Below, piece after piece: positions 21,541 to 57,191 of a stretch of DNA of 64,000 nt. Numbering within the stretch: position 1 is the stretch's first letter; the number at the start of each line of letters is the position of its first letter. The stretch comes from a virus. The stretch is from IMG/VR virus record IMGVR_UViG_3300048837_000975, positions 32,001 through 96,000 of that record; one strand, written 5' to 3'. The notes below the pieces were generated by a model. It made no database searches and was not told the DNA's origin. It saw only the letters and a list, made by a program, of their open reading frames with translations. A program made the translations under genes and the position numbers.

Positions 21541-21566
21541 TGTCCGGGCTTCCTTTGTTGTAGGGG

Positions 21567-21595
21567 TTGACTTTCTTAGCCATCAGCAGTATCCA
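21567..21595 (+). promoter_or_regulatory. sigma70-like promoter for the solitary repeat RNA
   Basis: TTGACT-N17-TATCCA, 6 nt before the ATTG at 21602. Confidence 0.55.
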
Positions 21596-21601
21596 GTATC
21601 C

Positions 21602-21621
21602 ATTGCGCTCCGAGGAGCGAC
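21602..21621 (+). CRISPR. solitary truncated CasPhi repeat (single repeat-guide unit)
   Basis: ATTGCGCTCCGAGGAGCGAC, 19/20 identical to the repeat core, with the change in the hairpin loop. Confidence 0.9.
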
Positions 21622-31732: not shown

Positions 31733-32364
31733 ATGGGCTAATCGAAAAACTGGTTGCCGAGCTTGGTGCGCTGGACCTGGACGCGCGTGTTGAGGCGCTG
31801 AACAAGATTCGTGAGGCGCTTCACGATGTGAGCCCGTTCAAGGAGGAACCGGTCGACTTCGTTCGATGGGTTAAGTCCGATACAGTTTCCGCGAACGCGT
31901 GGAATCCAAATCACGTCGCTCCGCCTGAGATGAAGCTGTTGGAGCTGTCGATTGTCGCTGATGGGTACACTCAACCAGTGGTAGGGTACGCCATTGAATC
32001 CGGCTACGAGGTTGTTGACGGCTTTCACAGAAATCTAGTGGCCAAAACTTCACCTCAAGTACGCGAACGAGTGAAGGGTTACCTTCCGATAGTCCGGATC
32101 AAATCCGACCGAGAAGATAAGGGAGATCGGATGGCGGCCACAATACGCCATAACAGGGCTCGCGGAAAACATGAGGTAATGGCCATGTCAACCATAGTAG
32201 CCGACCTAATCAAGCGCAACTGGTCAGAAAGTCGTGTTGCTACAGAGCTCGGAATGTCCGCTGATGAGGTTTTACGCTTGCGTCAGGTTACAGGGCTAGC
32301 AGAACTGTTCGCGGATCGCGAGTTCTCAGAGGCTTGGGAGATCGTTGAGGACACTCCGGAATGA
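31729..32364 (+). CDS. ibrB: IbrB-like ParB/Srx nuclease-domain protein
   Basis: EPVD.V.WV...AN.WNPN.VAPPEM.LL..SI..DGYTQP; VDGFHR; ATIRHNRARGKH. Confidence 0.92.
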   Translation: MNGLIEKLVAELGALDLDARVEALNKIREALHDVSPFKEEPVDFVRWVKSDTVSANAWNPNHVAPPEMKLLELSIVADGYTQPVVGYAIESGYEVVDGFHRNLVAKTSPQVRERVKGYLPIVRIKSDREDKGDRMAATIRHNRARGKHEVMAMSTIVADLIKRNWSESRVATELGMSADEVLRLRQVTGLAELFADREFSEAWEIVEDTPE

Positions 32365-34219: not shown

Positions 34220-34891
34220 ATGAGCTACTATCCTACGAATGGTTTGGGCGCGTCCGCGTCTGTTTCGGCCTCTGCCTCGTTGAGCGTTGGTGCGAAGAAG
34301 CCGGCTCCGAAGAAGCCTGCGCCCAAGAAACCGGCTCCGAAGAAGCCTGGTCTCATCACTTCGTTCGCCGCGAAGATAGCTGCGGCTACGAAATCTGCCG
34401 CTGATGCTAAGAAAAAGGCACAGATTGAGGCCGCCCGCAAAGCAGCCTCAGCTGCCGCATCAAAGCCTGGCACACCGAAGGCTGCTTCTGTTCCCGCTGC
34501 GCGGCCAGCGCTGCTGAGCGCTGCTGGTCACGCTATCAAGGCTGCGTCTACGCCAGTTGCTCGCCCAGCGCTCCTGAGCGAGTCCGGCGCGAAGGCGAAC
34601 GCCGATGTGATGAATCCGGAAAAGCAGAGCATTTCGACCGACGGAAAGTGCTACGCTGGTAAGGTTCTTTTTGAGAACCGTGGAATCAGCTTCTGTATGC
34701 CTCCCGCCGCGTACGCGCAGATGCAGCTCGAAAAGGCTGGCCCCGCCGTCGTCTCGGTGAAGCCCGAGGATGCCATTAATTCTGATCAGAAGACGGTGGA
34801 GGTGGAGCCAAAGAGTAACCTTCCTCTGAAGATTGCTGTCGGTGGGTTGATTGCTGCCGGAGCCATCACGCTGATTATTGTGGCAAGCTAA
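34220..34891 (+). CDS. Ala/Lys/Pro-rich protein with C-terminal TM
   Basis: NGLG, KKPAP x3, C-terminal hydrophobic helix. Confidence 0.7.
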   Translation: MSYYPTNGLGASASVSASASLSVGAKKPAPKKPAPKKPAPKKPGLITSFAAKIAAATKSAADAKKKAQIEAARKAASAAASKPGTPKAASVPAARPALLSAAGHAIKAASTPVARPALLSESGAKANADVMNPEKQSISTDGKCYAGKVLFENRGISFCMPPAAYAQMQLEKAGPAVVSVKPEDAINSDQKTVEVEPKSNLPLKIAVGGLIAAGAITLIIVAS

Positions 34892-45549: not shown

Positions 45550-46230
45550 GTGCCGACACCCTGCGGGAAAGCGTCGTACCAGATTCTGCCCAACTACCTT
45601 GTTGAGGTAAACGGGAAGGTTCCGACTTCTGACGGAATGCGCTCGAAGCTCGAGAAGCTTTGGAAAATGTATGGTCGCGAGGTCGCGGCCGCTTGCTCCA
45701 AGCACGGCATTCCTAAAGCGTGGTTCATGGGAATCATGCTGAAGGAGTCCGGTGGAGATGCGAACGCCTGTAGCCAGTGCAACGCACAGCTGTGTCCAGC
45801 CCTGTATAAGCACGGACTGTGCGCCACGCAGAAGTGTTGCGCATACGGTCTGATGCAGTTTATTGACAGCACAGCTCGCGACTACGGGACAACTGGCCCG
45901 GCGTTGCTAGGAAACGCTAGCCTGGCGATCGAGATTGCTGCTAGGTTTATTGCAGACAAGCGTTCCGAATATGGAAACGATCTCGTAAAGATCGCCGCAA
46001 GCTACAACTGTGGAAGCCCAAAGTGTACCGGAGAGGGAACCTTTGGGTACTGCGGACAGAACGACTACTCGATGGGCGTTTTGACCGCATCAAATACCTT
46101 CCAGCTGATGGGGCTCGGATCTGACTTCAGCTTGAGCCTGGAGCCAATCTTCTGGTATGGCGCCGCCTTGGGCGCCTATCTCGCCTGGCGCAAAATGCGC
46201 AAAGCGCAGCGCCTTCCGGTACCGGTGTAA
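45550..46230 (+). CDS. SLT-family lytic transglycosylase with C-terminal TM
   Basis: ESGG..NA; GLMQF...TA; ASYN.G. Confidence 0.88.
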   Translation: MPTPCGKASYQILPNYLVEVNGKVPTSDGMRSKLEKLWKMYGREVAAACSKHGIPKAWFMGIMLKESGGDANACSQCNAQLCPALYKHGLCATQKCCAYGLMQFIDSTARDYGTTGPALLGNASLAIEIAARFIADKRSEYGNDLVKIAASYNCGSPKCTGEGTFGYCGQNDYSMGVLTASNTFQLMGLGSDFSLSLEPIFWYGAALGAYLAWRKMRKAQRLPVPV

Positions 46231-46235
46231 CTTAG

Positions 46236-46904
46236 ATGGCTGTTTCCGTAAAAGACGTTTGTGGCCAAGCTCACCTAAAGCGAGGTGTCTGGGAGAAGGT
46301 GTGCTTTTCTCAGCAGTCTGACGCTTTCAAGGTGAAGATGGTCCAGGTCGCCCAGAGGTTAGGAATGGATCCTAGCTGGCTGGCCGCCGCGATTGCGTTT
46401 GAGAGCGGATTCAACCCGCAGGCCGTTAACCCGATATCTGGAGCTACTGGTCTTATCCAATTTATGCCGAAGTCGACAGCTCCTCAGCTTGGAACCTCCC
46501 AGGCTGAATTGCTGAAGATGAGCGCCATTCAGCAGTTGGACTACGTTGAGAAGTACTTTACGAAGTTCCACGCGAACAGATCCTGGAAAGGTCCCCAGGA
46601 TGTCTACTTTGCCATCTTCCTTCCAGTACTGATCGGAAAGGGACTGGATGACGTTGCGGCAAAGGCTGGCTCCCCGATCTATGATCAGAATAGGGGTTTT
46701 GACAGATCTGGAAAGGGATACTTTACGGCAAGAGACGTGGCTCAGCCCATCCTCTCTATTCTTAGCTCTGCAGATAGCAAACCACTTGTGATCGCGGCCG
46801 CGGCCGCAACAATCGGAGCGGCTGTCTGGTTTGGTGTCGCGGTTGGCGCATATCTCGCCTGGCGCAAGATGCGTAAAGCCCAGCGCCTTCCGGTGCCGGT
46901 GTAA
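46236..46904 (+). CDS. lytic transglycosylase with C-terminal TM
   Basis: FESGFNPQAVN..SGATGLIQFMP..TA. Confidence 0.88.
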   Translation: MAVSVKDVCGQAHLKRGVWEKVCFSQQSDAFKVKMVQVAQRLGMDPSWLAAAIAFESGFNPQAVNPISGATGLIQFMPKSTAPQLGTSQAELLKMSAIQQLDYVEKYFTKFHANRSWKGPQDVYFAIFLPVLIGKGLDDVAAKAGSPIYDQNRGFDRSGKGYFTARDVAQPILSILSSADSKPLVIAAAAATIGAAVWFGVAVGAYLAWRKMRKAQRLPVPV

Positions 46905-46912
46905 CTTAGAAC

Positions 46913-46941
46913 TTGACTATACATAAATCGGATGGTACCTT
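46913..46941 (+). promoter_or_regulatory. sigma70-like promoter
   Basis: TTGACT-N17-TACCTT with extended TG. Confidence 0.55.
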
Positions 46942-47067
46942 CCTACGTGAAGCTGAGTGATTCCTGGTTTTGTGTTCTCGCCAATCCAAAAATGGCGAAT
47001 GACCATGCCAGGTACTCTCTAAAGAGAGACGGCGGGCTCCGTGTCGTGCGGAGTTGTGTATTCAGAC

Positions 47068-49329
47068 ATGGCTGCTAAGCGAACAACCAAAGGTAAGGCG
47101 TTCAAGATCACCGAGAAGCAGGTGAAGGGCTACGGTTATGCGAAGCCTAATCCTGTTCCGGTTACCGCCATTGTCGCTGTGAACGGCAAAGGCGCGTACA
47201 AGAAGGCGCAGTCCGCTAAGTCTGTCATGTCCGGTCGCTCCAAGTCCGAAAGGCTCGGACGCGCACGGAAGTTGACTGCAAACACCCTAAAGGGTGAGAA
47301 TGCAAAAGGTTCGGCCTCTTACAAGAGCAACAAGGAGATTGGTATGCGGAAAACGGTAGCGCGCGCTCGAGTAAGGGCCGCGCTGAAAAAGAACCCCAAG
47401 TCGCCCACTGCGGCGCAGCTGAAAGCTCGTCAAGCTTTCGCCAAGATGGTCAAGGCGAAGTCTGGTAAGCTCAAGAAGAACCCGGGCAAAACTTCTGCGA
47501 AGAAAGCTCTGGCTGCTGCGCGCAAAGAATGGGCATCAAAGATGACCGCTAACAAGCGGCGTCGCGGTGGAAAGGCCAAGAAAAAGTGGGCCACTCCGCC
47601 AAGTTGGGCTCGCGGTCCTGCTGGCACCCAGGTGATGGGCGCCATTGGTCCTACCGGAACCAAGGTGATGGATGCTGCGAGGACTACGCGCATGGACGCC
47701 GTTGGCGCCCGTACGATGGTCTCCCCGGTCTACAGTGAAAGTTCTGCGCCCACTCGGCGCGCCGGTCGCAAGACCGCTTCTGTTCGTGTTGTGAAGCCTA
47801 CTAAGAAAGCAAGAAAGGGATCTCGTAAAATGGCTCGAAAAGCGGCCAGCAAGCGCGCCAAGAAGGCCGCTTCGGTCAAGTCGGTTAAGGTTGTTCGTCG
47901 TCGTCGGAAGCGCGTTGCCAAGAAGGCGGCGAAGAGCGTCAAGTCTCGACGCACGCGCAAGGCTGCGAAGTCTCGCAAGCCCCGTCGGCGAGTGAAGCGC
48001 ACCGCGAAGAAGGCAAAGCGCACCAAGAAGGCGAGCAAGCGTCGCACCAAGAAGAGCCGCAAGGCTGCCGCGAAGAAGGCTCCCCGCAAGGCTCGCAAGA
48101 CGCGGAAGGCTCGCAAGAGCCGCAAGACGCGACGTATGCGCAAGAATGGTCTGACTCGTCGTCAGCGCGCGGCTCGCAAGGCCGCTGCCACTCGCGCGGA
48201 GAAGAAGGCGCGACGTAGCGCTGCTGCGAAGAAGGCTGCTCGCAAGCGTTCACGCAAGTCTTCTGCGAAGAAATCGGTTCGTCGGGTGCGTCGTCGTCGG
48301 TCCGCTAAGCGGACGACCAAGCGATCCGCGAAGCGTGCTGCTCCGAAGAAGAAGGCTCGCAAGGCTCGCAAGTCGCGTCGCTCGTACAAGCGCAATGGCG
48401 TCGGTGCGAAGGTCAAGAGCTTCTTCAAGCGGAATGGCGTGATGGAGATCGTGAAGTTGGCGGGTCTCGTGACCGCTGGCGTCGTGACTCACCGCGCTTT
48501 GACCGCTGGTCTGAACGCTCTCGTTCTCAACCCGCTGCTCAACCCCGCTCCGACGGTTGCTGAGCCTGCTGCGACCGGATTCGTTCCGGAAGCTGCGAAG
48601 CCGATCGTCAAGCTGCTCGCTTCGGCTGCTGTTGCCGCGGCTGGTACGCTCGCCGTCAAGGCTGTCTCGAAGGATGCTCAGGTCGTCAACTCGGTTGCTG
48701 CCGGTATGATTGCCTCGGTTCTCCATCAGGCGGTTGTGACTGCGGTGGATATGGTCTCGCCCAAGGTTGCTGGCTACCTCGCTGGCGTCGAAGACGGTAC
48801 CGCGGCTCGCCTCTCGGCGATGTACGGTTACGGCGCTGCGTCGCTGCAACCGAGCTATGCTCCGATCTCGGGCATGGGCGAGTACTTCGAGGGTACGGCG
48901 GGTCTCGGCGAGTACTTCGAGGGTACGGCGGGTCTCGGCGAGTACTTCGATAGCACCTCCGGTCTCGGCTCGTATGGCGGCAACCCCGACATCTTCGAGG
49001 CGGCGGCGGGCTACGGAATGCTCGGCGACAACTCGGACGGCTACACGAACAACATCAACCCCAATGACGACCTCGATCGCCAGCTGACGATCGCGGAAGC
49101 GGCGGCTGGTGTTGGCGCGGCGCCCTATGAGGCTGCTGCTGGCATCGCGGAAGCGGCGGCGGGCTTCGGCTCGATCCAGTCGGTTCCCTCGGCGGACACC
49201 TGGGTTCCGGGTTCTGCTAACGGTCAGCTGTGGGCGGGTACGCGAGCTGTGAGCAATCCGCAGTCGGCAACCGCGATGGTTCCGGCCGGCGTGCTCGAGA
49301 GCGGCGGCGGCGCTGGCATCTTCGGCTGA
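47068..49329 (+). CDS. histone H1-like Lys/Arg-rich protein with hydrophobic helices and acidic GLGEYF/EAAAG repeats; candidate DNA-condensing core protein
   Basis: about 450 aa extremely basic region; strongly biased codons; directly upstream of the capsid-like gene. Confidence 0.7.
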   Translation: MAAKRTTKGKAFKITEKQVKGYGYAKPNPVPVTAIVAVNGKGAYKKAQSAKSVMSGRSKSERLGRARKLTANTLKGENAKGSASYKSNKEIGMRKTVARARVRAALKKNPKSPTAAQLKARQAFAKMVKAKSGKLKKNPGKTSAKKALAAARKEWASKMTANKRRRGGKAKKKWATPPSWARGPAGTQVMGAIGPTGTKVMDAARTTRMDAVGARTMVSPVYSESSAPTRRAGRKTASVRVVKPTKKARKGSRKMARKAASKRAKKAASVKSVKVVRRRRKRVAKKAAKSVKSRRTRKAAKSRKPRRRVKRTAKKAKRTKKASKRRTKKSRKAAAKKAPRKARKTRKARKSRKTRRMRKNGLTRRQRAARKAAATRAEKKARRSAAAKKAARKRSRKSSAKKSVRRVRRRRSAKRTTKRSAKRAAPKKKARKARKSRRSYKRNGVGAKVKSFFKRNGVMEIVKLAGLVTAGVVTHRALTAGLNALVLNPLLNPAPTVAEPAATGFVPEAAKPIVKLLASAAVAAAGTLAVKAVSKDAQVVNSVAAGMIASVLHQAVVTAVDMVSPKVAGYLAGVEDGTAARLSAMYGYGAASLQPSYAPISGMGEYFEGTAGLGEYFEGTAGLGEYFDSTSGLGSYGGNPDIFEAAAGYGMLGDNSDGYTNNINPNDDLDRQLTIAEAAAGVGAAPYEAAAGIAEAAAGFGSIQSVPSADTWVPGSANGQLWAGTRAVSNPQSATAMVPAGVLESGGGAGIFG
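48877..48950 (+). repeat. 30-bp coding tandem repeat, about 2.5 copies (GEYFEGTAGL)
   Basis: GGCGAGTACTTCGAGGGTACGGCGGGTCTC exact copies. Confidence 0.95.
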
Positions 49330-49335
49330 TAGTTG

Positions 49336-49364
49336 TTGACAAATGATGTAGGTTCATGTAGTAG
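49336..49364 (+). promoter_or_regulatory. putative promoter of the capsid-like gene
   Basis: TTGACA-N17-TAGTAG. Confidence 0.45.
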
Positions 49365-49503
49365 TATCTGAACACATCGCACCTTGCCCCAGAGACTTCC
49401 GGAAAACCGGGGTCCTGGGGTTAAGGTGTCAGAAGGGTCCGAGCGGGAACCAGGCCCGTAACTAACCAAGGTAGACCTTTCAGGAAAGTAAAAGCAAAAG
49501 ACC

Positions 49504-50253
49504 ATGGCAAAAATTGTTTCTATTCGCGAGCGCGTTCATCAGCCCTTCTATGACCACCTGATCCGTACGGCTGGTATGGCGCAGGGCTCGGTCCAGGACA
49601 CGAACGCTCTGTTCACCTCGAACGGCGCGCGCACCGAGGCGACCACGAACTTGATCAACGGCGCGACGCTGCCGTCTGACCAGTCGCACGTGACCCTCGT
49701 GCTTCGCGTTTTCACGTGGTTCCGTAACCCCGTTCTCCGCGTTGCGGGTGCGGATGCTGGTGAAGTGGCTGGCAACGGCGATTATGACGATCTGGACGAG
49801 TTCCAGACCGGCGGGATCGCGGTCGGCAACGCTCCGGGTTCCACGAAGGACGTGTACCGTCTGGCGTGGCAGTCGAGCGAGCAGCTTCACTGGACGTTCG
49901 GTGCGGGTCTGAAGCCCAGCATTGACAATATGCCTACTTGGTACTTCCCGACGGGTGGCGGCCTCCTGTCGGACCTCGCCGGCAGCACGGACCTCGTGCA
50001 CCTCAACAACGGTATGCCCTCGCATGAGAGCATTCTCCGCCTCGGCCGCGCGGTGCTCATCCCCCCGCGTCAGAACATTCTCTGCACTGCCAAGATTTTC
50101 AGCCTTCCCGACGCCGGGAACGCGCTGGCGTTCGGCACGGTGCAGGGCAGCCGCAACATGCTGTCGCTCCGCGACAACCTGAACGCGGTCGACCTCGTGC
50201 AGAAGTGCGTGAGCTTCTGTATCGATGGTCTGTTCAGCCGCGACGTTCAGTAA
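49504..50253 (+). CDS. putative major capsid protein (beta-rich, single jelly-roll-like)
   Basis: 249 aa, no TM, alternating beta pattern (QPFYD...TNL..G.LP...FP.GGG...NG.P...IDGL.SRDVQ); strong codon bias; own promoter and terminator; the fold is inferred, not searched. Confidence 0.6.
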   Translation: MAKIVSIRERVHQPFYDHLIRTAGMAQGSVQDTNALFTSNGARTEATTNLINGATLPSDQSHVTLVLRVFTWFRNPVLRVAGADAGEVAGNGDYDDLDEFQTGGIAVGNAPGSTKDVYRLAWQSSEQLHWTFGAGLKPSIDNMPTWYFPTGGGLLSDLAGSTDLVHLNNGMPSHESILRLGRAVLIPPRQNILCTAKIFSLPDAGNALAFGTVQGSRNMLSLRDNLNAVDLVQKCVSFCIDGLFSRDVQ

Positions 50254-50280
50254 CAGCGGATTCTGTCGAAATCGACAGGG

Positions 50281-50316
50281 CGAAGGGGCTCCGGGGTTGA
50301 CTCGGGGCCCTTTTCG
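50281..50316 (+). terminator. intrinsic terminator hairpin after the capsid-like gene
   Basis: CGAAGGGGCTCCGGG-GTTGA-CTCGGGGCCCTTTTCG; a second small hairpin CTGTCGA-AA-TCGACAG at 50263-50278. Confidence 0.7.
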
Positions 50317-50324
50317 TCTACAAT
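50297..50324 (+). promoter_or_regulatory. sigma70-like promoter of the mini-array, embedded in the terminator
   Basis: TTGACT-N16-TACAAT, 7 nt before the first repeat. Confidence 0.7.
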
Positions 50325-50331
50325 GTAGAGC

Positions 50332-50570
50332 ATTGCGCTCTGAGGAGCGACATACAGAAGCTGACGCACCGTCGCAAATTGCGCTCTGAGGAGCGACATG
50401 CTGGGCTTCAGACCTGCGGCACCTATCATTCCACAAATTGCGCTCTGAGGAGCGACTAGAAGGGCTGATGAACGCGCTCGCGAATAGAATTGCGCTCTGA
50501 GGAGCGACAGCCGCGACGTTCAGTAACAGCGGATTTGCGCTCTGAGGAGCGACACTTGGTACTTCCCTAC
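50332..50570 (+). CRISPR. mini-array of five 5'-truncated CasPhi repeats with five self-matching guides
   Basis: core ATTGCGCTCTGAGGAGCGAC at 50332, 50378, 50437, 50489 and (19 nt) 50535; guides match 49518-50262. Confidence 0.95.
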
Positions 50571-50603
50571 ACACTGTAATCTGGAGTGGTGCAAAAAAAG
50601 TTC

Positions 50604-50632
50604 TTGCTCCGCTTCGCATGGGCTGCTACAAC
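50604..50632 (+). promoter_or_regulatory. putative cas12j promoter
   Basis: TTGCTC-N17-TACAAC with extended TG; ATG at 50642. Confidence 0.5.
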
Positions 50633-50641
50633 GCTGGAGCG

Positions 50642-52945
50642 ATGAAGAAAACGACAAATCTGAAGATTGAAAATGGCGTATCGCCGCTTGCGCAGATGAC
50701 TCGCAAGCATTTTCCGGGAAAAAGGTTTCCAGCTAGCGTCTTGAAGCCAGCTGGCAGGAAGCTCAAGGATCACGGTGAGCAAGCTGCGATCGAATTTCTG
50801 CAGGCCAACATTGATGTTCCTTACGGGAACTTTAAGGCGCCGGCAAAGTGTAATGTTGTCGCTACTAGTCGCCCGTATAGCGAGTGGCCGCTTTACAAGT
50901 TCTCATCTGAGCTTCAGAAAGCAGTCTTTGCACTCTCAAAGGATAGGCTGATGGAGATTGAACCATCAAAGCAATCCGACGCAGAGAACGAGAAGTTCCT
51001 GTCAGCGATCGGAGTCAGCGCGGATCCGTCAATTAACGTGACGTTCGTTAGCGCGTGCATTTCAAAGGCCGTGCATACGTACCTTGGAATGGAGAAGAAG
51101 GCTGAGAACAAGTACCAGAAGAAGTTGTCAAGGTGTCGCTCAGAGAGCGAGCTAAGTAGCGTCACACCAGAAAACGTATACAATGAAGACGGAACGCTTT
51201 CTGACGGGTGGCGGCCCGGTTTCAATGCTAACCTATACGGAAACTCAAATAGCAAGCTGAGTCTATTCGGATCCGTTAGGTCGCACAACAAGGTGGAGCT
51301 GCCTGTGTGGCTTTCTGAATACCGAGAGTGGGCAAAGAATCGCTCAAAGGATTCAAAGATCAATGAGTACAGCGCAAGCGTTGATCGACTGTCGATTCCG
51401 GAGGGCCAGCCCGGTCACGTTCCGCTTTGGCAAAGAGACTCGTCTAAGCGAACTAAGCCGGGCGGTGGAGAGATCAAAGAAGGGGTTCGTCGTCATCGAT
51501 GGTACTCGAACCGAAACAACGCGAACCGAAGGAACAAGGTTGACCAGGCAACCAGGTTGGCCGCATCGGCTATGGAGATGGTTCTTGCAATCGCATTCTT
51601 CGGAGAGGACTGGGTTCTCTTTGACATTCGCGGACTACTTAGGAACGCTCGCTACCGCAAGCTTGTGAACAAGAATACGACATATGGCGATCTGATGGAG
51701 TTGTTTACGGCAGATCCTGTTCTTGATACAAAGCGAGGAATCATCACCGCATCGTATAAGGACACGACTCTCAAGATCGTTCAGCAGACAATAGTCGGCG
51801 AAAAGAAGTCCAAATCCAAGATTCTGGAAGAGGTCCAGAAGAACGGGCCGGTTGCTGTTGTATCGATCGATCTCGGTGTAAATGAGCCCGTGTCGTACCG
51901 TGTGTCGAGGGTTGATGTAGCTGGAGGGAACGCCATCGTTGCCGAGCTTGCCGCTGAAGGATTCATGAGCAACGAACTAAAGAAAGAGATTTCTAGTTAT
52001 CGGGAAAAGTCGGACGAGCTTAACGGCGATCTTCGTGAGAAGGCAGTCCTTTCCCTCTCGGACGAAATGCAGGCAGAGATTCGCCGAGTCGACGCAACGA
52101 ATGCCAGTGACTCGAAGAACAGAATCTGCGAAATGCTCAGCCTGGATCCGGAAAGCGTTGACTGGTCAAAGATGACCACGCAAACCAGGTTCATTTTCAA
52201 CAAGCACGTTGAGAACGGCGGGGATCCTAACGTCCTTCTGTTCACTCCGACCGAGGACAAAAAGAACAAAGGTAAGAAGAGCAAGAATAAGAAGGGCGAG
52301 TACGGAGACAGGGTTCCGCACTCCGACAGTGGGATCGCTCGGAACATTGCCAGAGAGAAGCTCAGTATGGAGACTTGCGAGGCTCTCAACAAAGCAAAAC
52401 GGGAACTGCAACAAGAAGATCCTCGGTATGGTAAGCTTTCCAAGCGAAAGCAGGAGTTCGCTCGACGCGTAGTGAACGGAGTGGTTGTGCGCGCACAGGA
52501 AGTCACTGGGTGTGATAACGTTGTGCTGGTCGTTGAGAAGCTCAACGTATCAAACAAGATGTTTAGCGGAAGCGGAAAACGAGCTCCAGGATGGGACAAC
52601 TTCTTCGTTCACAAGAAAGAGAACCGCTGGTTTATTCAGGCGCTACACAAGGCGTTCACCGACAAGGCTGCGCACAAGGGCATTCCTGTAATCGAAATTA
52701 AACCGAGCTATACAAGTCAGACTTGCCCAGCGTGCGAGCATTGTGACAAGGACAACCGAGACGGGGTTCACTTCTGCTGCACCAGGTGCGGGTTCACCGG
52801 TCACGCGGACCTCAACGTAGCGTGCTTCAACATTGAGAAAGTTGCTCTTACTGGAGAAGCTATGAGCGGACCCGGCAGCGCAACTGCGCACAAAAAGACT
52901 CGCAAACCAAAGAAGGCTATGGTAGAGTCAGATAAAGCCGCGTAA
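50642..52945 (+). CDS. cas12j: CasPhi (Cas12j) type V CRISPR effector
   Basis: KHFPG.RF; NF..PAKC.VV..SR...EWP; PG..P.WQR; D.RGLLRNAR; FT.DPV.D; RuvC-I SIDLG; RuvC-II VEKLNV; GSGKR.PGWDNFF..KKENRWFIQ.LHKAF; zinc ribbon; RuvC-III ADL.VA. These match the CasPhi-2 sequence as recalled. Confidence 0.97.
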   Translation: MKKTTNLKIENGVSPLAQMTRKHFPGKRFPASVLKPAGRKLKDHGEQAAIEFLQANIDVPYGNFKAPAKCNVVATSRPYSEWPLYKFSSELQKAVFALSKDRLMEIEPSKQSDAENEKFLSAIGVSADPSINVTFVSACISKAVHTYLGMEKKAENKYQKKLSRCRSESELSSVTPENVYNEDGTLSDGWRPGFNANLYGNSNSKLSLFGSVRSHNKVELPVWLSEYREWAKNRSKDSKINEYSASVDRLSIPEGQPGHVPLWQRDSSKRTKPGGGEIKEGVRRHRWYSNRNNANRRNKVDQATRLAASAMEMVLAIAFFGEDWVLFDIRGLLRNARYRKLVNKNTTYGDLMELFTADPVLDTKRGIITASYKDTTLKIVQQTIVGEKKSKSKILEEVQKNGPVAVVSIDLGVNEPVSYRVSRVDVAGGNAIVAELAAEGFMSNELKKEISSYREKSDELNGDLREKAVLSLSDEMQAEIRRVDATNASDSKNRICEMLSLDPESVDWSKMTTQTRFIFNKHVENGGDPNVLLFTPTEDKKNKGKKSKNKKGEYGDRVPHSDSGIARNIAREKLSMETCEALNKAKRELQQEDPRYGKLSKRKQEFARRVVNGVVVRAQEVTGCDNVVLVVEKLNVSNKMFSGSGKRAPGWDNFFVHKKENRWFIQALHKAFTDKAAHKGIPVIEIKPSYTSQTCPACEHCDKDNRDGVHFCCTRCGFTGHADLNVACFNIEKVALTGEAMSGPGSATAHKKTRKPKKAMVESDKAA

Positions 52946-53133
52946 TGATCTAAAACGCCGAGATCCTCTGAACCGGAGGCGCTCGCAAACAGAAATTGAC
53001 AACAAGTTCGACAGGATGCCATCTGAGCATAGAATGGCACCAGGAGGCACGAGCGCGAGATCGCTCCCGGATCGGAAAGGCTCTCGCAAACCGTTCGGTA
53101 ACCGCGCGAATCTACAGGGTCTCACGGAGACCC

Positions 53134-53662
53134 ATAGAAACCCCTACAAATTGCGCTCTGAGGAGCGACGACCGCCAAAGCAGCCAAGGTGCCAGCGCTA
53201 CCGACATAGAAACCCCTACAAATTGCGCTCTGAGGAGCGACTGACCACGGGATCGCTCGCCGTCGTGAACGGAATGATCATAGAAACCCCTACAAATTGC
53301 GCTCTGAGGAGCGACCCAGTGTTCGTGACCTCTACCGCCGTCTACTTTTGGCATAGAAACCCCTACAAATTGCGCTCTGAGGAGCGACTTGGTGCCAGCC
53401 TCACCACGACCGCCGCATCAGGCGCGATAGAAACCCCTACAAATTGCGCTCTGAGGAGCGACTGAGTCCACCCAATCACTATCGAGCATATGCCACTCCT
53501 ATAGAAACCCCTACAAATTGCGCTCTGAGGAGCGACCGCGACGAACGCAAAGAGCTTGTGGCTGCGGCCCGCCATAGAAACCCCTACATATTGCGCTCTG
53601 AGGAGCGACTTAGCTTCGCCGAGGATCTAGAAACCCCTACAAATTGCGCTCTGAGGAGCGAC
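53134..53662 (+). CRISPR. CasPhi CRISPR array, 8 repeats of 36 bp and 7 spacers (36, 38, 37, 38, 38, 37, 17 nt)
   Basis: ATAGAAACCCCTACAAATTGCGCTCTGAGGAGCGAC at 53134, 53206, 53280, 53353, 53427, 53501, 53574 (1 SNP) and 53627 (1 SNP); ATTG-hairpin-AC 3' end typical of CasPhi. Confidence 0.99.
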
Positions 53663-53788
53663 ACTCAAACGGAACGAACGTCAGGGGAGACGCCACAAAA
53701 CGTAAAGCTTGATTGAATTCCTGCGTCATGGTAACTTGCTATGTGTTGCAGCCCGCCATGTTGGCGGAGACCCAATCATAGGAGAACC

Positions 53789-54721
53789 ATGGCAAATATC
53801 GATCTGACTCAGCTCATTCAATCCGCTAATTTTGCGAGCGCGGCCGCGCGTAAGCACGAGCAGCAAATCTCTGGCATCGGAATGCGCGTTGCGGAGATTC
53901 AGAAGGAGTTCGGCAACCTTCGTGATGCTCTTTCGCGCGTTGAGATCTCGTCCCGCATGGGCGATCCCGGAATTCAGCGTGTTGAGAACATTCCCGGCCG
54001 ACGAGTGCCCTTCGATCTGCTCGTAGACATTCCGATCGCTGCGGGCAGCACCGCTGTTCAGCAGGGCACTATCACGATCAGCCAAGAAGGCCCGTTCGTG
54101 GCGGTCTCGCGCTTCGCTACGCTGCTTTCTGCGTACGAGTACACCTACACGGAGCCCGGCACTTCTAGCACGACGCGTTACCAAGGCCGCAGCTACGGCC
54201 GGTACCGCCCGATTCACTCTGCGTGGGATCTGAACGATGGCAATCCGATTGCGACTACGACTCTGACGACTCCGCCCACCTTCCCTGGTACCGGTGCGCC
54301 TCTGATCGTGTCTCCGAGCAACGCGAGCAGCTTCCGCACGATGGAGGGAGACTTCCGAATCAAGTTCGAGAACGCCGGTTCCAGCTTCCCCAGAAGCAAC
54401 CTCGAAGTTCCGAGCCCGTTCTGGACGAAGAGCATCAACGAGGCATTCGATCTTGGGGCTCTGGATGTGTTTGAGCGCGGCGAGGTGCTGAGCTTCCGTG
54501 TTCTTCCGCTTCATGCCGCAAACGCCTCCTATGGCAACCTCGCTGGCTACGGAACGGGCGACTATCCGTACATTGAGTCGCAGTGGGATGCTGTCGAAGG
54601 TATTGACGATACGGTCGACGCGGAAGCCACGGTGGATCCGATTACGCGTTACCCGAACTCGATTCTGACTATTGGCTTCCACGGATACCGGATCATCCAA
54701 CAGCCGGGCGTCGTCTACTAA
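53789..54721 (+). CDS. second beta-rich capsid-like protein with N-terminal coiled coil
   Basis: AGGAG SD; beta pattern ending LTIGFHGYRI; biased codons. Confidence 0.55.
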   Translation: MANIDLTQLIQSANFASAAARKHEQQISGIGMRVAEIQKEFGNLRDALSRVEISSRMGDPGIQRVENIPGRRVPFDLLVDIPIAAGSTAVQQGTITISQEGPFVAVSRFATLLSAYEYTYTEPGTSSTTRYQGRSYGRYRPIHSAWDLNDGNPIATTTLTTPPTFPGTGAPLIVSPSNASSFRTMEGDFRIKFENAGSSFPRSNLEVPSPFWTKSINEAFDLGALDVFERGEVLSFRVLPLHAANASYGNLAGYGTGDYPYIESQWDAVEGIDDTVDAEATVDPITRYPNSILTIGFHGYRIIQQPGVVY

Positions 54722-54729
54722 GGAGCATT

Positions 54730-55560
54730 ATGAGCGATTTCGCGAGGCAATTTAGCCAAGCGTTCGCGCAGACCAACCCGCACATCGGTGGCAATCGTTC
54801 TGCCAGTGTGCGGGTTGGACAACCGGCGCCAATTCCCGAGTCCGTAAGGGGTCGGGGGTGTAGCGACGCTGCGCGCACTGTTGTGGCTGGCGGAGCAATG
54901 TCACAGTTGCTTCTGCACCCTACGTTCGTTCCGTTTGAGCTTACGTTCCGTAAGCTACCCGACGACGGCGTTTATACCGCTAACAGAATAAACCAATACG
55001 CATTTGAGCTTGGATCCTTCACGGTTCCCACTTCGATGTCATTGGCTGTCGCGGAGTACTCGTTTCGACCTTACCGCATCTCTGGGGCTGCTCCTGGAGA
55101 AGCTGTTCCGCTCGAGACAGGTAGATTGTCGTTGGAGCTTGCGTACGACCTGAACATTGACCAGTACCGTAAGGGAAACATCAAGACACAGGTTGTCCCG
55201 CGGCTACCTTCGCCTGCACAGAACGCGTTTGCTGGTAATCCTTCTGGCGGATCTGTGTTTCAGCAGTCGGTTGGCGGGCTGGCTGGATCGGCGTCGCTGG
55301 CGAGCTTCAACTCTGACGTTACATCCGGGCTCACCAACTATGGTGACGCTCTCATCATTCAGGGAACAAAGACTCAGCAGGGTCCTGAGAAGTTCCCGTT
55401 CACCTATTACGTTAGGTCCAACCAGGCTGTTCAGATGCGAGTGATCGTGTTTGGGCAGATCACGATTCCTCTTGCGTTCTTCGAGGGCGTGTTGAGCGGG
55501 TATCTGATGCCGCAGAACACTCTTGAGTCGATGCTTGACGGCGTGAGTCCCTGTCAGTGA
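54730..55560 (+). CDS. third beta-rich capsid/vertex-like protein
   Basis: AGGAG SD; FELGSFTVP...EGVLSGYL. Confidence 0.5.
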   Translation: MSDFARQFSQAFAQTNPHIGGNRSASVRVGQPAPIPESVRGRGCSDAARTVVAGGAMSQLLLHPTFVPFELTFRKLPDDGVYTANRINQYAFELGSFTVPTSMSLAVAEYSFRPYRISGAAPGEAVPLETGRLSLELAYDLNIDQYRKGNIKTQVVPRLPSPAQNAFAGNPSGGSVFQQSVGGLAGSASLASFNSDVTSGLTNYGDALIIQGTKTQQGPEKFPFTYYVRSNQAVQMRVIVFGQITIPLAFFEGVLSGYLMPQNTLESMLDGVSPCQ

Positions 55561-55651
55561 GTTTGCTTGTTGCGTTGCTGCTGCGGAGGAGACAAAACAC
55601 CCTACGTGGCAGCGGCGCAACGGGCAGTATCGTTAGCGAAGAGAGTGGATA

Positions 55652-55795
55652 ATGGCAAAGACAGTTTCCGTTATCTCTGGAGTGCCTGATGGGCTGAGCG
55701 GATCGCCTGGAGCGACTATCGTTCCGTGGGTGATCATTGCCAGTGTCGTTGGATTTGTGTTTTGGTCTACGACATGTCAGATTAAGGGGAGCTAA
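55652..55795 (+). CDS. 47-aa membrane protein (absent from the ORF track)
   Basis: MAKTVSVISGVPDGLSGSPGATIVPWVIIASVVGFVFWSTTCQIKGS; TAATG overlap with the next gene. Confidence 0.65.
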   Translation: MAKTVSVISGVPDGLSGSPGATIVPWVIIASVVGFVFWSTTCQIKGS

Positions 55796-56121
55796 TGTCC
55801 CTTAGTCTCGCAGACATAGAGACGATCTCCAACGTGGCGACTCGGATTGACGCGAATCCGGTGTTGCTGCTTGGAAGGTTCTTTGGGCTGAGCGCGGAAG
55901 AGCAGCGCGCGGGCGTTCCGACGTGGGGATGGATCGCTTTGGGGGTTGGCGTAGCTGTGGCTGGCGGACTGCTTCTTCATCGCAAGTACGCGAAGAACAG
56001 TAGTGAAGACGACGACGAGGAAGAGGACGAGAAGCCCAAGAAGCGTGTGAAGAAGCGCAAGAACCCAGCGAAGCGCTCTAAGATGTTTCGCGTAGTTAGG
56101 ACTCCAAATGAGACGGTCTGA
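55795..56121 (+). CDS. membrane protein with charged tail
   Basis: central TM; RKNP motif. Confidence 0.7.
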   Translation: MSLSLADIETISNVATRIDANPVLLLGRFFGLSAEEQRAGVPTWGWIALGVGVAVAGGLLLHRKYAKNSSEDDDEEEDEKPKKRVKKRKNPAKRSKMFRVVRTPNETV

Positions 56122-56356
56122 CACTGAGTTTATTGCTGAGGTTGCTCTGAGGGCCGGGTTATCCGTTAACGCAACCGGCGTCGGGTATATGTGCCTCGTG
56201 AGTCCGGACGATCCTCATTCGTCGGTCGCCTGCTATGCGGTCGTTTTGACCCAAGATGGCGTTGAGACCATTTTTGATCCTGGCGTGGGCGGTACAGTTG
56301 CTCAGGCTGAGGAAGACCTACTGTCGATTGTCAAGCGAGTTCACAAGAAATTGTGA
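56108..56356 (+). CDS. hypothetical protein
   Basis: ORF in operon. Confidence 0.5.
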   Translation: MRRSDTEFIAEVALRAGLSVNATGVGYMCLVSPDDPHSSVACYAVVLTQDGVETIFDPGVGGTVAQAEEDLLSIVKRVHKKL

Positions 56357-56400
56357 TTCACAAGAGTTTTTGATACTCTGTATCTCAGGAGTCGAAGATT

Positions 56401-56688
56401 ATGGCTAACGGAATTCTGCAAGTTGGGCAAGGTCGTGCGGTTCGTGATGGTGTGCTTGGTTCGGTGCTTGCTACCGGTCCTGGCGCGTCGTATCGTGATG
56501 GCTCGCTTGGCGAGTACATGAGCTACGGAACGAACGGCCTTGGCGGCTGCAGCTCGTGTGGTACGAGCGGTCTCGGCGAGGGCGCGAGCGTGCTCGGTTT
56601 CGATATCGGCACTAACACCATCCTTGGCGCGCTGATCGGTGCCGCTGCAGTGTACTACGCGATTGCTAACGGCCATATCAAGGTGTGA
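56401..56688 (+). CDS. small Gly-rich membrane protein
   Basis: AGGAG SD; SLGEY, two GLG; TM. Confidence 0.75.
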   Translation: MANGILQVGQGRAVRDGVLGSVLATGPGASYRDGSLGEYMSYGTNGLGGCSSCGTSGLGEGASVLGFDIGTNTILGALIGAAAVYYAIANGHIKV

Positions 56689-57191
56689 TCGTGGCGCACA
56701 GATCCGAACATAGTCAACGGATCCTGTCTATGGCGGCGGAGTACAACGCTAAGAAGGTTGAGAGCTGCCTACGGCACATTGATCTGGAGATGAACCGTCT
56801 TCAGGAAGCGTCAGATCGCGGCGTTGATGTTTATGAGCTGTGGACAACGGCTACTCCAGAGTCTCTCGGTAAACTCCAAGAGATGGGCATAATCCGCAAC
56901 GCCAAAGCTCTCGCTGACTCGATGGACTACTGCGCTGAGCACTATGCGCGGTGGGAGAAGGAGCAGCAGAGCGATCGTAGCTACGACTCCGAGGAGTACG
57001 AGTACAACGGAAAGAACTCGTTTAAGACGAGGGCAGCTTTCCAGATTGGTGGCCGCTGGAAGTGGGTAACGTGGGTTCACGAGGAGCCCAATAAGCACGC
57101 AGCGATCATCGAAAAGGCGAAGGAGCTCGGAGCTTCCCGGTGGGATTACGGAAACGCAGATCATGCGTTTGTGAGTGAAGCTAACTTCTGA
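56685..57191 (+). CDS. hypothetical protein
   Basis: GTGA overlap. Confidence 0.55.
   Translation: MIVAHRSEHSQRILSMAAEYNAKKVESCLRHIDLEMNRLQEASDRGVDVYELWTTATPESLGKLQEMGIIRNAKALADSMDYCAEHYARWEKEQQSDRSYDSEEYEYNGKNSFKTRAAFQIGGRWKWVTWVHEEPNKHAAIIEKAKELGASRWDYGNADHAFVSEANF

Follow-up and report, generated by a model that had tools for sequence, protein, structure and literature searches.

A phage-borne Cas12j cassette whose fixed guides match genes on both of its flanks

Why would a virus carry a CRISPR nuclease together with a set of guides that match the adjacent gene of its own genome? This question is raised by a 64,000-nucleotide stretch of viral DNA (positions 32,001 to 96,000 of IMG/VR record IMGVR_UViG_3300048837_000975; here called the window), which is part of a single virus contig of 125,690 bp. 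In it, a cas12j gene is preceded by a mini-array of five CRISPR RNA (crRNA) handles, each followed by a guide that matches the upstream gene for a conserved 249-amino-acid protein, P0001, probably a shell protein (Table 1). An earlier note, made from the letters of the DNA, had described the five matches and proposed three uses for them, namely, RNA-guided repression or timing of the targeted gene, exclusion of kin or homing with self-protection, and programmed breaks for the exchange of alleles. The analysis described here indicates that the mini-array, cas12j, and a downstream main array form a cassette that appears to have been inserted recently and that close relatives lack. We tentatively favor the reading that it is a selfish or competitive element with built-in guides against the shell genes that flank the insertion site in cassette-free kin.

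Guides, enzyme, and target gene

The positions and scores claimed for the five guide-target matches, as well as the flanks of the targets, were reproduced without change (Table 1). Guides A, B, and C address the antisense strand of the P0001 gene and guides D and E the sense strand, and the targets lie at codons 5 to 16, 134 to 150, and 235 to the stop codon. Within the first 17 nt, the match is perfect (17/17) for guides B, C, and D and covers 16 of 17 positions for guides A and E; the 27-nt match of guide D consists of the 26 nt before the next handle plus the first T of that handle. The three mismatches between guides and gene are all synonymous third codon positions, as had been stated (GTG/GTC at codon 236, GCG/GCA at codon 134, and CCG/CCT at codon 149), and they fall at guide positions 12, 15, and 18. 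A chance origin of these matches is excluded: none of 400 shuffled 17-mers had any site of at least 16/17 across the 125.7-kb genome, and the analytic expectation of such a site inside the gene is 4.6e-6 per guide. Targets C, E, and D are in the 83rd to 96th conservation percentile of 17-nt windows (C, 93rd to 96th; E, 89th to 96th), whereas A and B are not, and guide C would still fit relatives of about 70% identity, with 28/29 (G003) and 27/28 (G007) positions matched in the homologous gene. A search of viral contigs with the guide A 18-mer gave one match, on an unrelated contig, which was judged to be due to chance. The 13 letters with which guide A begins, its mismatch to the shell gene among them, are also present in the window at 34659-34698 on the minus strand with the flank AGGC; about 0.004 such sites are expected per guide, and the recurrence may be chance.

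Each handle of the mini-array is identical in sequence to the 3' half of the 36-nt repeat of the main array and folds at -7.0 kcal/mol. In the structure of Cas12j3, the hybrid of crRNA and DNA is split after base pair 17, and a hybrid of more than 12 nt activates cutting (PMC8298400). Since the hybrid of that enzyme is limited to 17 nt, the end of identity after 17 to 20 nt in guides A, B, and E appears to reflect functional guide length and not decay, which supports the earlier proposal of a maintained, dedicated guide set against the neighboring gene. By the Cas12j3 standard, the mini-array guides would be full-length and cleavage competent.

The flanks of the targets were compared with the protospacer-adjacent motif (PAM) TBN, a rule that belongs to CasPhi-2 and may not be that of the present ortholog. 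Four of the five flanks are TBN, against a background of 0.17 (P = 0.004), and all five read pyrimidine-pyrimidine-N. The targets also form two pairs, A/D and B/E, in which the PAM sides face each other across a gap of 13 bp. Two facing pairs of equal gap occurred in a fraction of 2e-4 of 200,000 random placements, in a test that was chosen post hoc.

The protein encoded by cas12j, which starts 65 bp downstream of the last handle of the mini-array, is most similar among PDB chains to CasPhi-3 (7odf; E = 8e-133), CasPhi-2 (7lys; E = 4e-124), and Cas12j-SF05 (8iew; E = 1e-118). It thus shows the sequence similarity of a Cas12j, together with the RuvC triad and an adjacent array of 36-nt repeats that have a 3' hairpin (5-bp stem). 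The RuvC residues D418, E640, and D731, the presence of which had been claimed, are invariant in 13 of 13 sequences (the protein and 12 homologues) and identical in the printed alignments with CasPhi-2 and CasPhi-3. A search of 5.8 billion protein clusters gave no homologues beyond these 12, whose identities are 31 to 37%. Two glutamines of Cas12j3, Q123 and Q197, read its PAM, and replacing either one with alanine costs about 90% of the activity (PMC8298400). At these positions of the printed alignment, the present protein has T142 and S210, so that both PAM-reading glutamines are replaced; they are kept in 10 and 9 of the 12 homologues, respectively, and one homologue, P0127, likewise lacks both. 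Because of these replacements, a PAM of the CasPhi-2 type cannot be assumed for this ortholog.

The loss of both glutamines bears on whether the guides do anything at all. The mini-array could be a nonfunctional by-product, in which neighboring DNA was captured beside repeat fragments by illegitimate recombination and then tolerated as a Cas12j that no longer targets double-stranded DNA did no harm. Apart from the altered residues, this would agree with the cassette having one long open reading frame (ORF) and neither cas1 nor cas2, so that any capture must have been unorthodox, and with the end of spacer C, the final six letters of which are the first six letters of the full repeat. It would leave unexplained that identity is trimmed to functional length in three units, that all five handles are identical, and that the targets have PAM-like flanks and a paired geometry; we consider it very improbable.

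The label "capsid-like" that the earlier note gave to the targeted gene is weakly supported. P0001 has 671 homologues at E <= 0.001, most of them of about 250 amino acids, and the 120 listed run from 97% to about 62% identity. A model built from 34 sequences is a beta sandwich of the jelly-roll kind (predicted local distance difference test score [pLDDT], 66; predicted template modeling score [pTM], 0.67), the best structural matches of which are the single-jelly-roll coat proteins of SPV1 (6oj0) and HHIV-2. The match to 6oj0 (Foldseek E of about 0.08; VIA Z of 7.3 over 132 residues) lies inside the stated noise range of the tool, and P0001 had no match in Pfam or PHROG. A jelly-roll shell protein is a reasonable, not a proven, designation. 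Genome contigs gave one match, a shell homologue of 56% identity; its 4.6-kb contig (L100) was assigned to the bin of an uncultured Pirellulales genome, and this hints weakly at the family's host range.

The cassette, its absence from relatives, and its other guides

Contigs of four public sequencing runs were compared with positions 46000 to 57000 of the window. Both flanks of the cassette were covered at about 95 to 96% identity, and the cassette interior was essentially uncovered. Joints that skip it were found in runs from two studies, one leading from 50317 to 53780 (run X1; 3,462 bp skipped) and the other from 50235 to 53777 (run X3; 3,541 bp skipped). In all 10 of the IMG/VR relatives compared (55 to 72% protein identity), the gene order p762, P0001 homologue, p326, and p276 is kept, with nothing between the P0001 homologue and p326; cas12j was absent from these 10 records, three of which are at least 90% complete. 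From these comparisons, the 3.46-kb cassette appears to be a recent insertion that close relatives lack. In P0142, presumably the shell protein of the X1 contig that skips the cassette and bears a solitary handle (below), 2 of 249 residues are not those of P0001, and neither falls in a target codon.

The left edge of the insertion lies directly after the T-tract of the shell-gene terminator, and the cassette-free relative matches up to position 50317. The junction seems to have created a sigma-70-type promoter, with the -35 element in the ancestral hairpin and the -10 element, TACAAT, in inserted DNA, eight bases before the first handle.

A sixth self-directed guide follows the last repeat of the main array and addresses p276, the gene on the other flank (Table 1); a search of viral contigs with its 19-mer gave no match. 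Spacers S1 to S7 of the main array had no convincing match in the genome itself or in the whole records of six relatives, where the best scores were at noise level (23 to 26 of 36 to 37). The seventh of these spacers (53610-53626) is only 17 nt long, which equals the functional guide length.

Handles were also found outside the arrays. At the leader of the shell gene, a close relative that lacks the cassette has about 30 extra letters, lying between 49360 and 49355 of the window, which together with the next base contain 18 of the 19 handle letters. The guide of this solitary handle would be the adjacent leader sequence, which in the window is uninterrupted and preceded by GTTC, as target D is. 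We infer, from one contig per run, that the handle is a sign of conflict over this Cas12j; it could be a decoy of the RNA anti-CRISPR type, or a guide that aims the rival's enzyme at the uninterrupted allele. In the window, this leader (49330-49503; 175 nt) has a TTGACA box as well as a stretch that is rich in G+C and apparently structured.

The carrier itself has a solitary handle at 21603, and the guide that would follow it gave only noise-level matches in the genome itself and in the whole records of the six relatives. This handle sits between two divergent genes, and the opposite strand has, about 40 nt upstream of it, 11 letters equal to part of the 5' half of the repeat, so that near 21551-21621 two halves of one repeat lie close together but inverted. 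The exact 19-nt handle had no match in viral contigs and two in metagenome contigs. One of these (L011) was dismissed as a chance match in unrelated sequence. The other (L012; 1,096 nt) has at 181-206 a solitary identical handle, preceded by six identical letters and located after a promoter-like stretch, and otherwise shows no similarity to the carrier genome.

The completeness of the carrier contig was estimated by CheckV at 78%, and complete relatives span 125 to 138 kb. Among the IMG/VR relatives, genomes of the family are about 95 to 138 kb, and two records have direct terminal repeats. A tRNA search of the window found none, an Rfam search gave a single match below threshold, and searches of GenBank phages gave no DNA match and, with proteins, only TnpB-like partial matches.

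Table 1. Features of the locus. Coordinates are those of the window; flanks are 5' of the protospacer on the non-target strand.
Feature	Position	Strand	Basis and details
Mini-array, five identical 19-nt repeat 3' halves (crRNA handle, 5-bp stem)	50333..50570	+	Handles at 50333, 50379, 50438, 50490, 50535; guide after each
Protospacer C	49518..49550	-	Guide 50457-50489; 33/33; flank TCA; codons 5-16
Protospacer B	49903..49922	-	Guide 50398-50417; 19/20, first 17 perfect; flank TCA
Protospacer E	49936..49952	+	Guide 50554-50570; 16/17, mismatch at 15; flank CCT; 13 bp from B, PAM sides facing
Protospacer A	50205..50222	-	Guide 50352-50369; 17/18, mismatch at 12; flank TCG
Protospacer D	50236..50262	+	Guide 50509-50535; 27/27; flank TTC; spans stop codon; 13 bp from A, PAM sides facing
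Target gene P0001, conserved 249-aa protein, probably jelly-roll shell protein	49504..50253	+	ORF, homologues, weak structural match
cas12j (775 aa)	50618..52945	+	PDB sequence matches, Pfam Cas12f1-like TNB domain
Inserted cassette (mini-array, cas12j, leader, main array, trailer)	50318..53779	+	Joints in relatives' contigs
Terminator-like hairpin of target gene with -35 TTGACT	50293..50324	+	Hairpin 50293-50311; promoter-like site 50297-50324, 10/12 matches
Promoter-like site ahead of main array	53008..53035	+	10/12 matches
Canonical array, 8 repeats of 36 nt	53134..53662	+	Spacers 36-38 nt except seventh (17 nt)
Terminal guide after last repeat	53663..53681	+	18/19 to 54922-54940
Protospacer of terminal guide, inside p276	54922..54940	-	Flank TAA, mismatch at guide position 1
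Leader site where close relative holds about 30 extra letters with same handle	49355..49380	+	Runs X1 and X2, one study
Solitary handle	21603..21621	+	1 loop mismatch, 29 kb from cas12j
p762, upstream neighbor of target gene	47041-49329		Gene order
p326, first gene right of cassette	53790-54721		Gene order
p276, right-flank gene targeted by terminal guide	54730-55560		

Proposed action on kin or on the carrier

We infer expression, loading, cutting, a competitive outcome, and sparing of the carrier as follows. A 3.46-kb Cas12j cassette would have entered between two shell-protein genes of a phage of about 125 kb, where the -35 element in the neighbor's terminator and the -10 element in cassette DNA would let transcription start a few bases before the first handle, a handle of 19 nt plus a guide of about 17 nt being all that each unit needs. 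In a mixed infection, loaded Cas12j would cut cassette-free kin in the left shell gene, at five sites that include the two facing pairs, and in p276 on the right. The outcome would be exclusion of the kin genomes or copying of the cassette into them from the carrier by means of RecT and YqaJ. The carrier might be spared by strain-level recoding that is hidden in the consensus, by an inhibitor, by timing, or by DNA modification. Action on cassette-free kin is suggested because an insertion, guides to both of its flanks, and kin with a cognate solitary handle were found together. The self mismatch at position 1 of the right-flank guide, at a target that has no T-pyrimidine flank, fits escape from self-cutting, and the genes for RecT and YqaJ, correctly reported by the earlier note, are encoded by the carrier phage, so that homing could be supported.

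Several points weigh against this reading. Guides B, C, and D are perfect over 17 nt to the carrier's own gene, the targets have T-pyrimidine flanks, and RuvC is intact; therefore, by the known biochemistry of Cas12j, the carrier should cut itself. No recoded second copy of the P0001 gene was found on the 125.7-kb contig. For the exact shell protein and for the exact Cas12j there are two contigs each on record, with a maximum length of 126,880 bp in either case. Should these be the same two contigs, a single chimeric join would be less likely, although the two may not be independent. The variant base of guide E occurs in none of 10 relatives, all of which carry the self base, so that this mismatch is no evidence of a kin allele. 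Moreover, the comparison with close kin at the target sites was made at the level of protein (P0142), efficient targeting of double-stranded DNA is not assured given the replaced PAM glutamines, and the architecture is known from one genome only.

The conflict with self-cutting would disappear if the consensus were misleading, that is, if the true shell allele of the carrier were recoded at the protospacers and the assembly had taken up the majority, cassette-free allele in its place, the targeting of kin being real. The public runs do contain cassette-free relatives, with shell-gene pieces of 95 to 99.6% identity, and each run contains at most 7% of the words of the stretch. The recording of both exact proteins on two contigs speaks against this, with the reservation made above as to their sameness. 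In addition, the target of guide D lies 56 bp from the cassette edge and can be spanned by one short read or pair, and at three positions the assembly and the guides already disagree. Such an artifact is distinctly improbable.

The perfect or near-perfect self matches with their PAM-like flanks could instead be taken at face value, as binding of the carrier's own genome without its destruction. Cas12j would then act as a roadblock or timer on the late shell genes of its own phage, the facing pairs serving as bidirectional blocks, and cutting would be prevented by a feature of the ortholog or by an inhibitor. The three mismatches are PAM distal, and the guide E variant that is absent from the relatives may be a change in the guide. 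The intact RuvC residues would be compatible with binding, as CasPhi processes its own crRNA with RuvC. The replaced PAM glutamines would fit as well, given the effect of the Cas12j3 alanine mutants, and crRNA-like regulators are widespread (PMC10120712). Known regulators of this kind, however, pair partially with promoters, whereas the matches seen here are full-length and lie inside an ORF and at its stop codon. Furthermore, 10 of 10 relatives do without such control, the cassette was recently inserted, and the sixth guide, with its position-1 mismatch and TAA flank, is poorly suited to self. Overall, control of the carrier's own genes is the main rival to action on kin, and it is rather unlikely.

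Programmed self-breaks would take the intact RuvC and the full-length guides equally literally: Cas12j would cut the shell gene of its own phage so that RecT and YqaJ, both encoded, could exchange alleles or start recombination-dependent replication. No precedent was found in the literature, five sites in one essential gene would be a costly start for recombination, and the poor self match of the right-flank guide would be left unexplained. We regard this as the least probable of the explanations considered.

With action on kin as the preferred reading, kin conflict or homing is tentatively favored among the three uses proposed in the earlier note, by the insertion, the sixth guide, and the relative's handle. 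A bolder version, which is unlikely, is that of a natural RNA-guided viral gene drive. Shell genes on both sides of the empty site would be cut in sister phages and the cassette copied in by recombination. Sisters would answer with a solitary handle in the shell-gene leader, soaking up Cas12j or re-aiming it at the carrier's uninterrupted allele, and the facing pairs with their 13-bp gap would be a paired-cutting unit. Of the features of a homing or drive element, presence or absence at a fixed site among close relatives was found, and resistance of the carrier allele was not, as far as the consensus sequence shows. If the guides act on kin, we know of no earlier natural case in which the CRISPR nuclease of a virus is equipped with guides fixed against essential genes on either side of the place where it is inserted.

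Comparison with known systems

The earlier note had proposed that other cas12j loci be examined for such arrays co-varying with the capsid gene. A single-sequence search of viral contigs with Cas12j and an alignment search of genome contigs found nothing; an alignment search of viral contigs found two huge-phage cas12j loci (L013/G001 and L014/G002), and neither has a handle-only array beside cas12j. In the first, a 323-kb phage of which the whole record was scanned, there are seven array repeats and nine solitary handles, the latter dispersed along the genome and all on the array strand, and the guides have no long self match except for one solitary unit with a 15- to 17-nt tandem copy directly downstream. 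Three of these solitary handles share an identical 22-nt upstream sequence, and one precedes a sequence like a tRNA 3' end. Matches of 11 nt with a GTTC flank were considered as regulatory sites in this phage and dropped, as they resemble the tRNA T-arm. In the second locus, a search for handles only found 10, all within the array.

The literature examined yielded no example of a virus whose own Cas12 has fixed guides to the structural genes next to it. Arrays of huge phages are reported to target structural genes of other phages (PMC7162821), and viral mini-arrays against relatives are known from conflicts between viruses (PMC6858448, PMC11656645). Like the present locus, the latter are short viral arrays with spacers against structural genes of the same virus family. 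A role in competition is plausible for the present locus as well, given the cassette-free kin. The known arrays rely on the repeats and Cas proteins of the host, and their one or two spacers are directed at relatives and not at self, in contrast to the own Cas12j, handle-only repeats, and five or six guides found here, which match the carrier's adjacent gene. The self-avoidance expected of such inter-virus arrays is absent for five guides (16 to 17 of 17 positions match the carrier) and is seen only for the terminal guide.

Regulators of the CreA/CreR type (PMC10120712) are, like the mini-array, built of repeat-like units that stand apart from the main array beside the effector gene, and their guides address the same locus. 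Their pairing with the promoters of cas or cargo genes is partial, for example over 11 bp, so that cutting is avoided, and differs from the full 17-nt hybrid within a structural gene that is predicted here. Solitary repeat units also act as RNA anti-CRISPRs (PMC10651486, PMC11656645), and the relative's handle and that at 21603 have the same form. The five units of the mini-array, however, bear specific full-length guides and thus would not be mere decoys.

Whichever genome is addressed, three features of the locus may be of use: natural crRNAs reduced to a 19-nt handle and some 17 nt of guide, which a promoter apparently starts directly; a Cas12j in which the PAM pocket is altered; and targets arranged as facing pairs. 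If the guides act on self, the locus would be a case of full-length-guide Cas12 used for gene control, or of tolerated self-targeting, which would imply a mechanism of self-protection.

For action on kin, the nearest parallels are homing elements, of which T4 Seg and Mob are free-standing examples. Free-standing phage homing endonucleases (PMC10448857) are likewise encoded between conserved essential genes and cut a nearby sequence that is conserved in genomes without them, as the cassette would; flanking markers would be co-converted. The present cassette differs in having several RNA guides, directed to both flanks, and the immunity that such endonucleases gain from polymorphism of the site is not seen for guides B, C, and D.

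RNA-guided homing is found in TnpB and IscB, which use omega-RNA, and type V-K CRISPR transposons have a short "delocalized" homing guide. The cassette shares with these systems (see PMC13565253) its truncated repeats, a guide length of about 17 nt, and the use of dedicated guides that are not acquired and are tied to the insertion site, and it differs from them in having no transposase, in matching the neighboring genes and not the empty site, and in the intact nuclease residues of Cas12j. As in TnpB/IscB homing, the guide of the relative's solitary handle equals adjacent DNA and would address the uninterrupted allele. If the guides of the cassette act on kin, its layout would be the one that has been designed for multiplexed gene drives.

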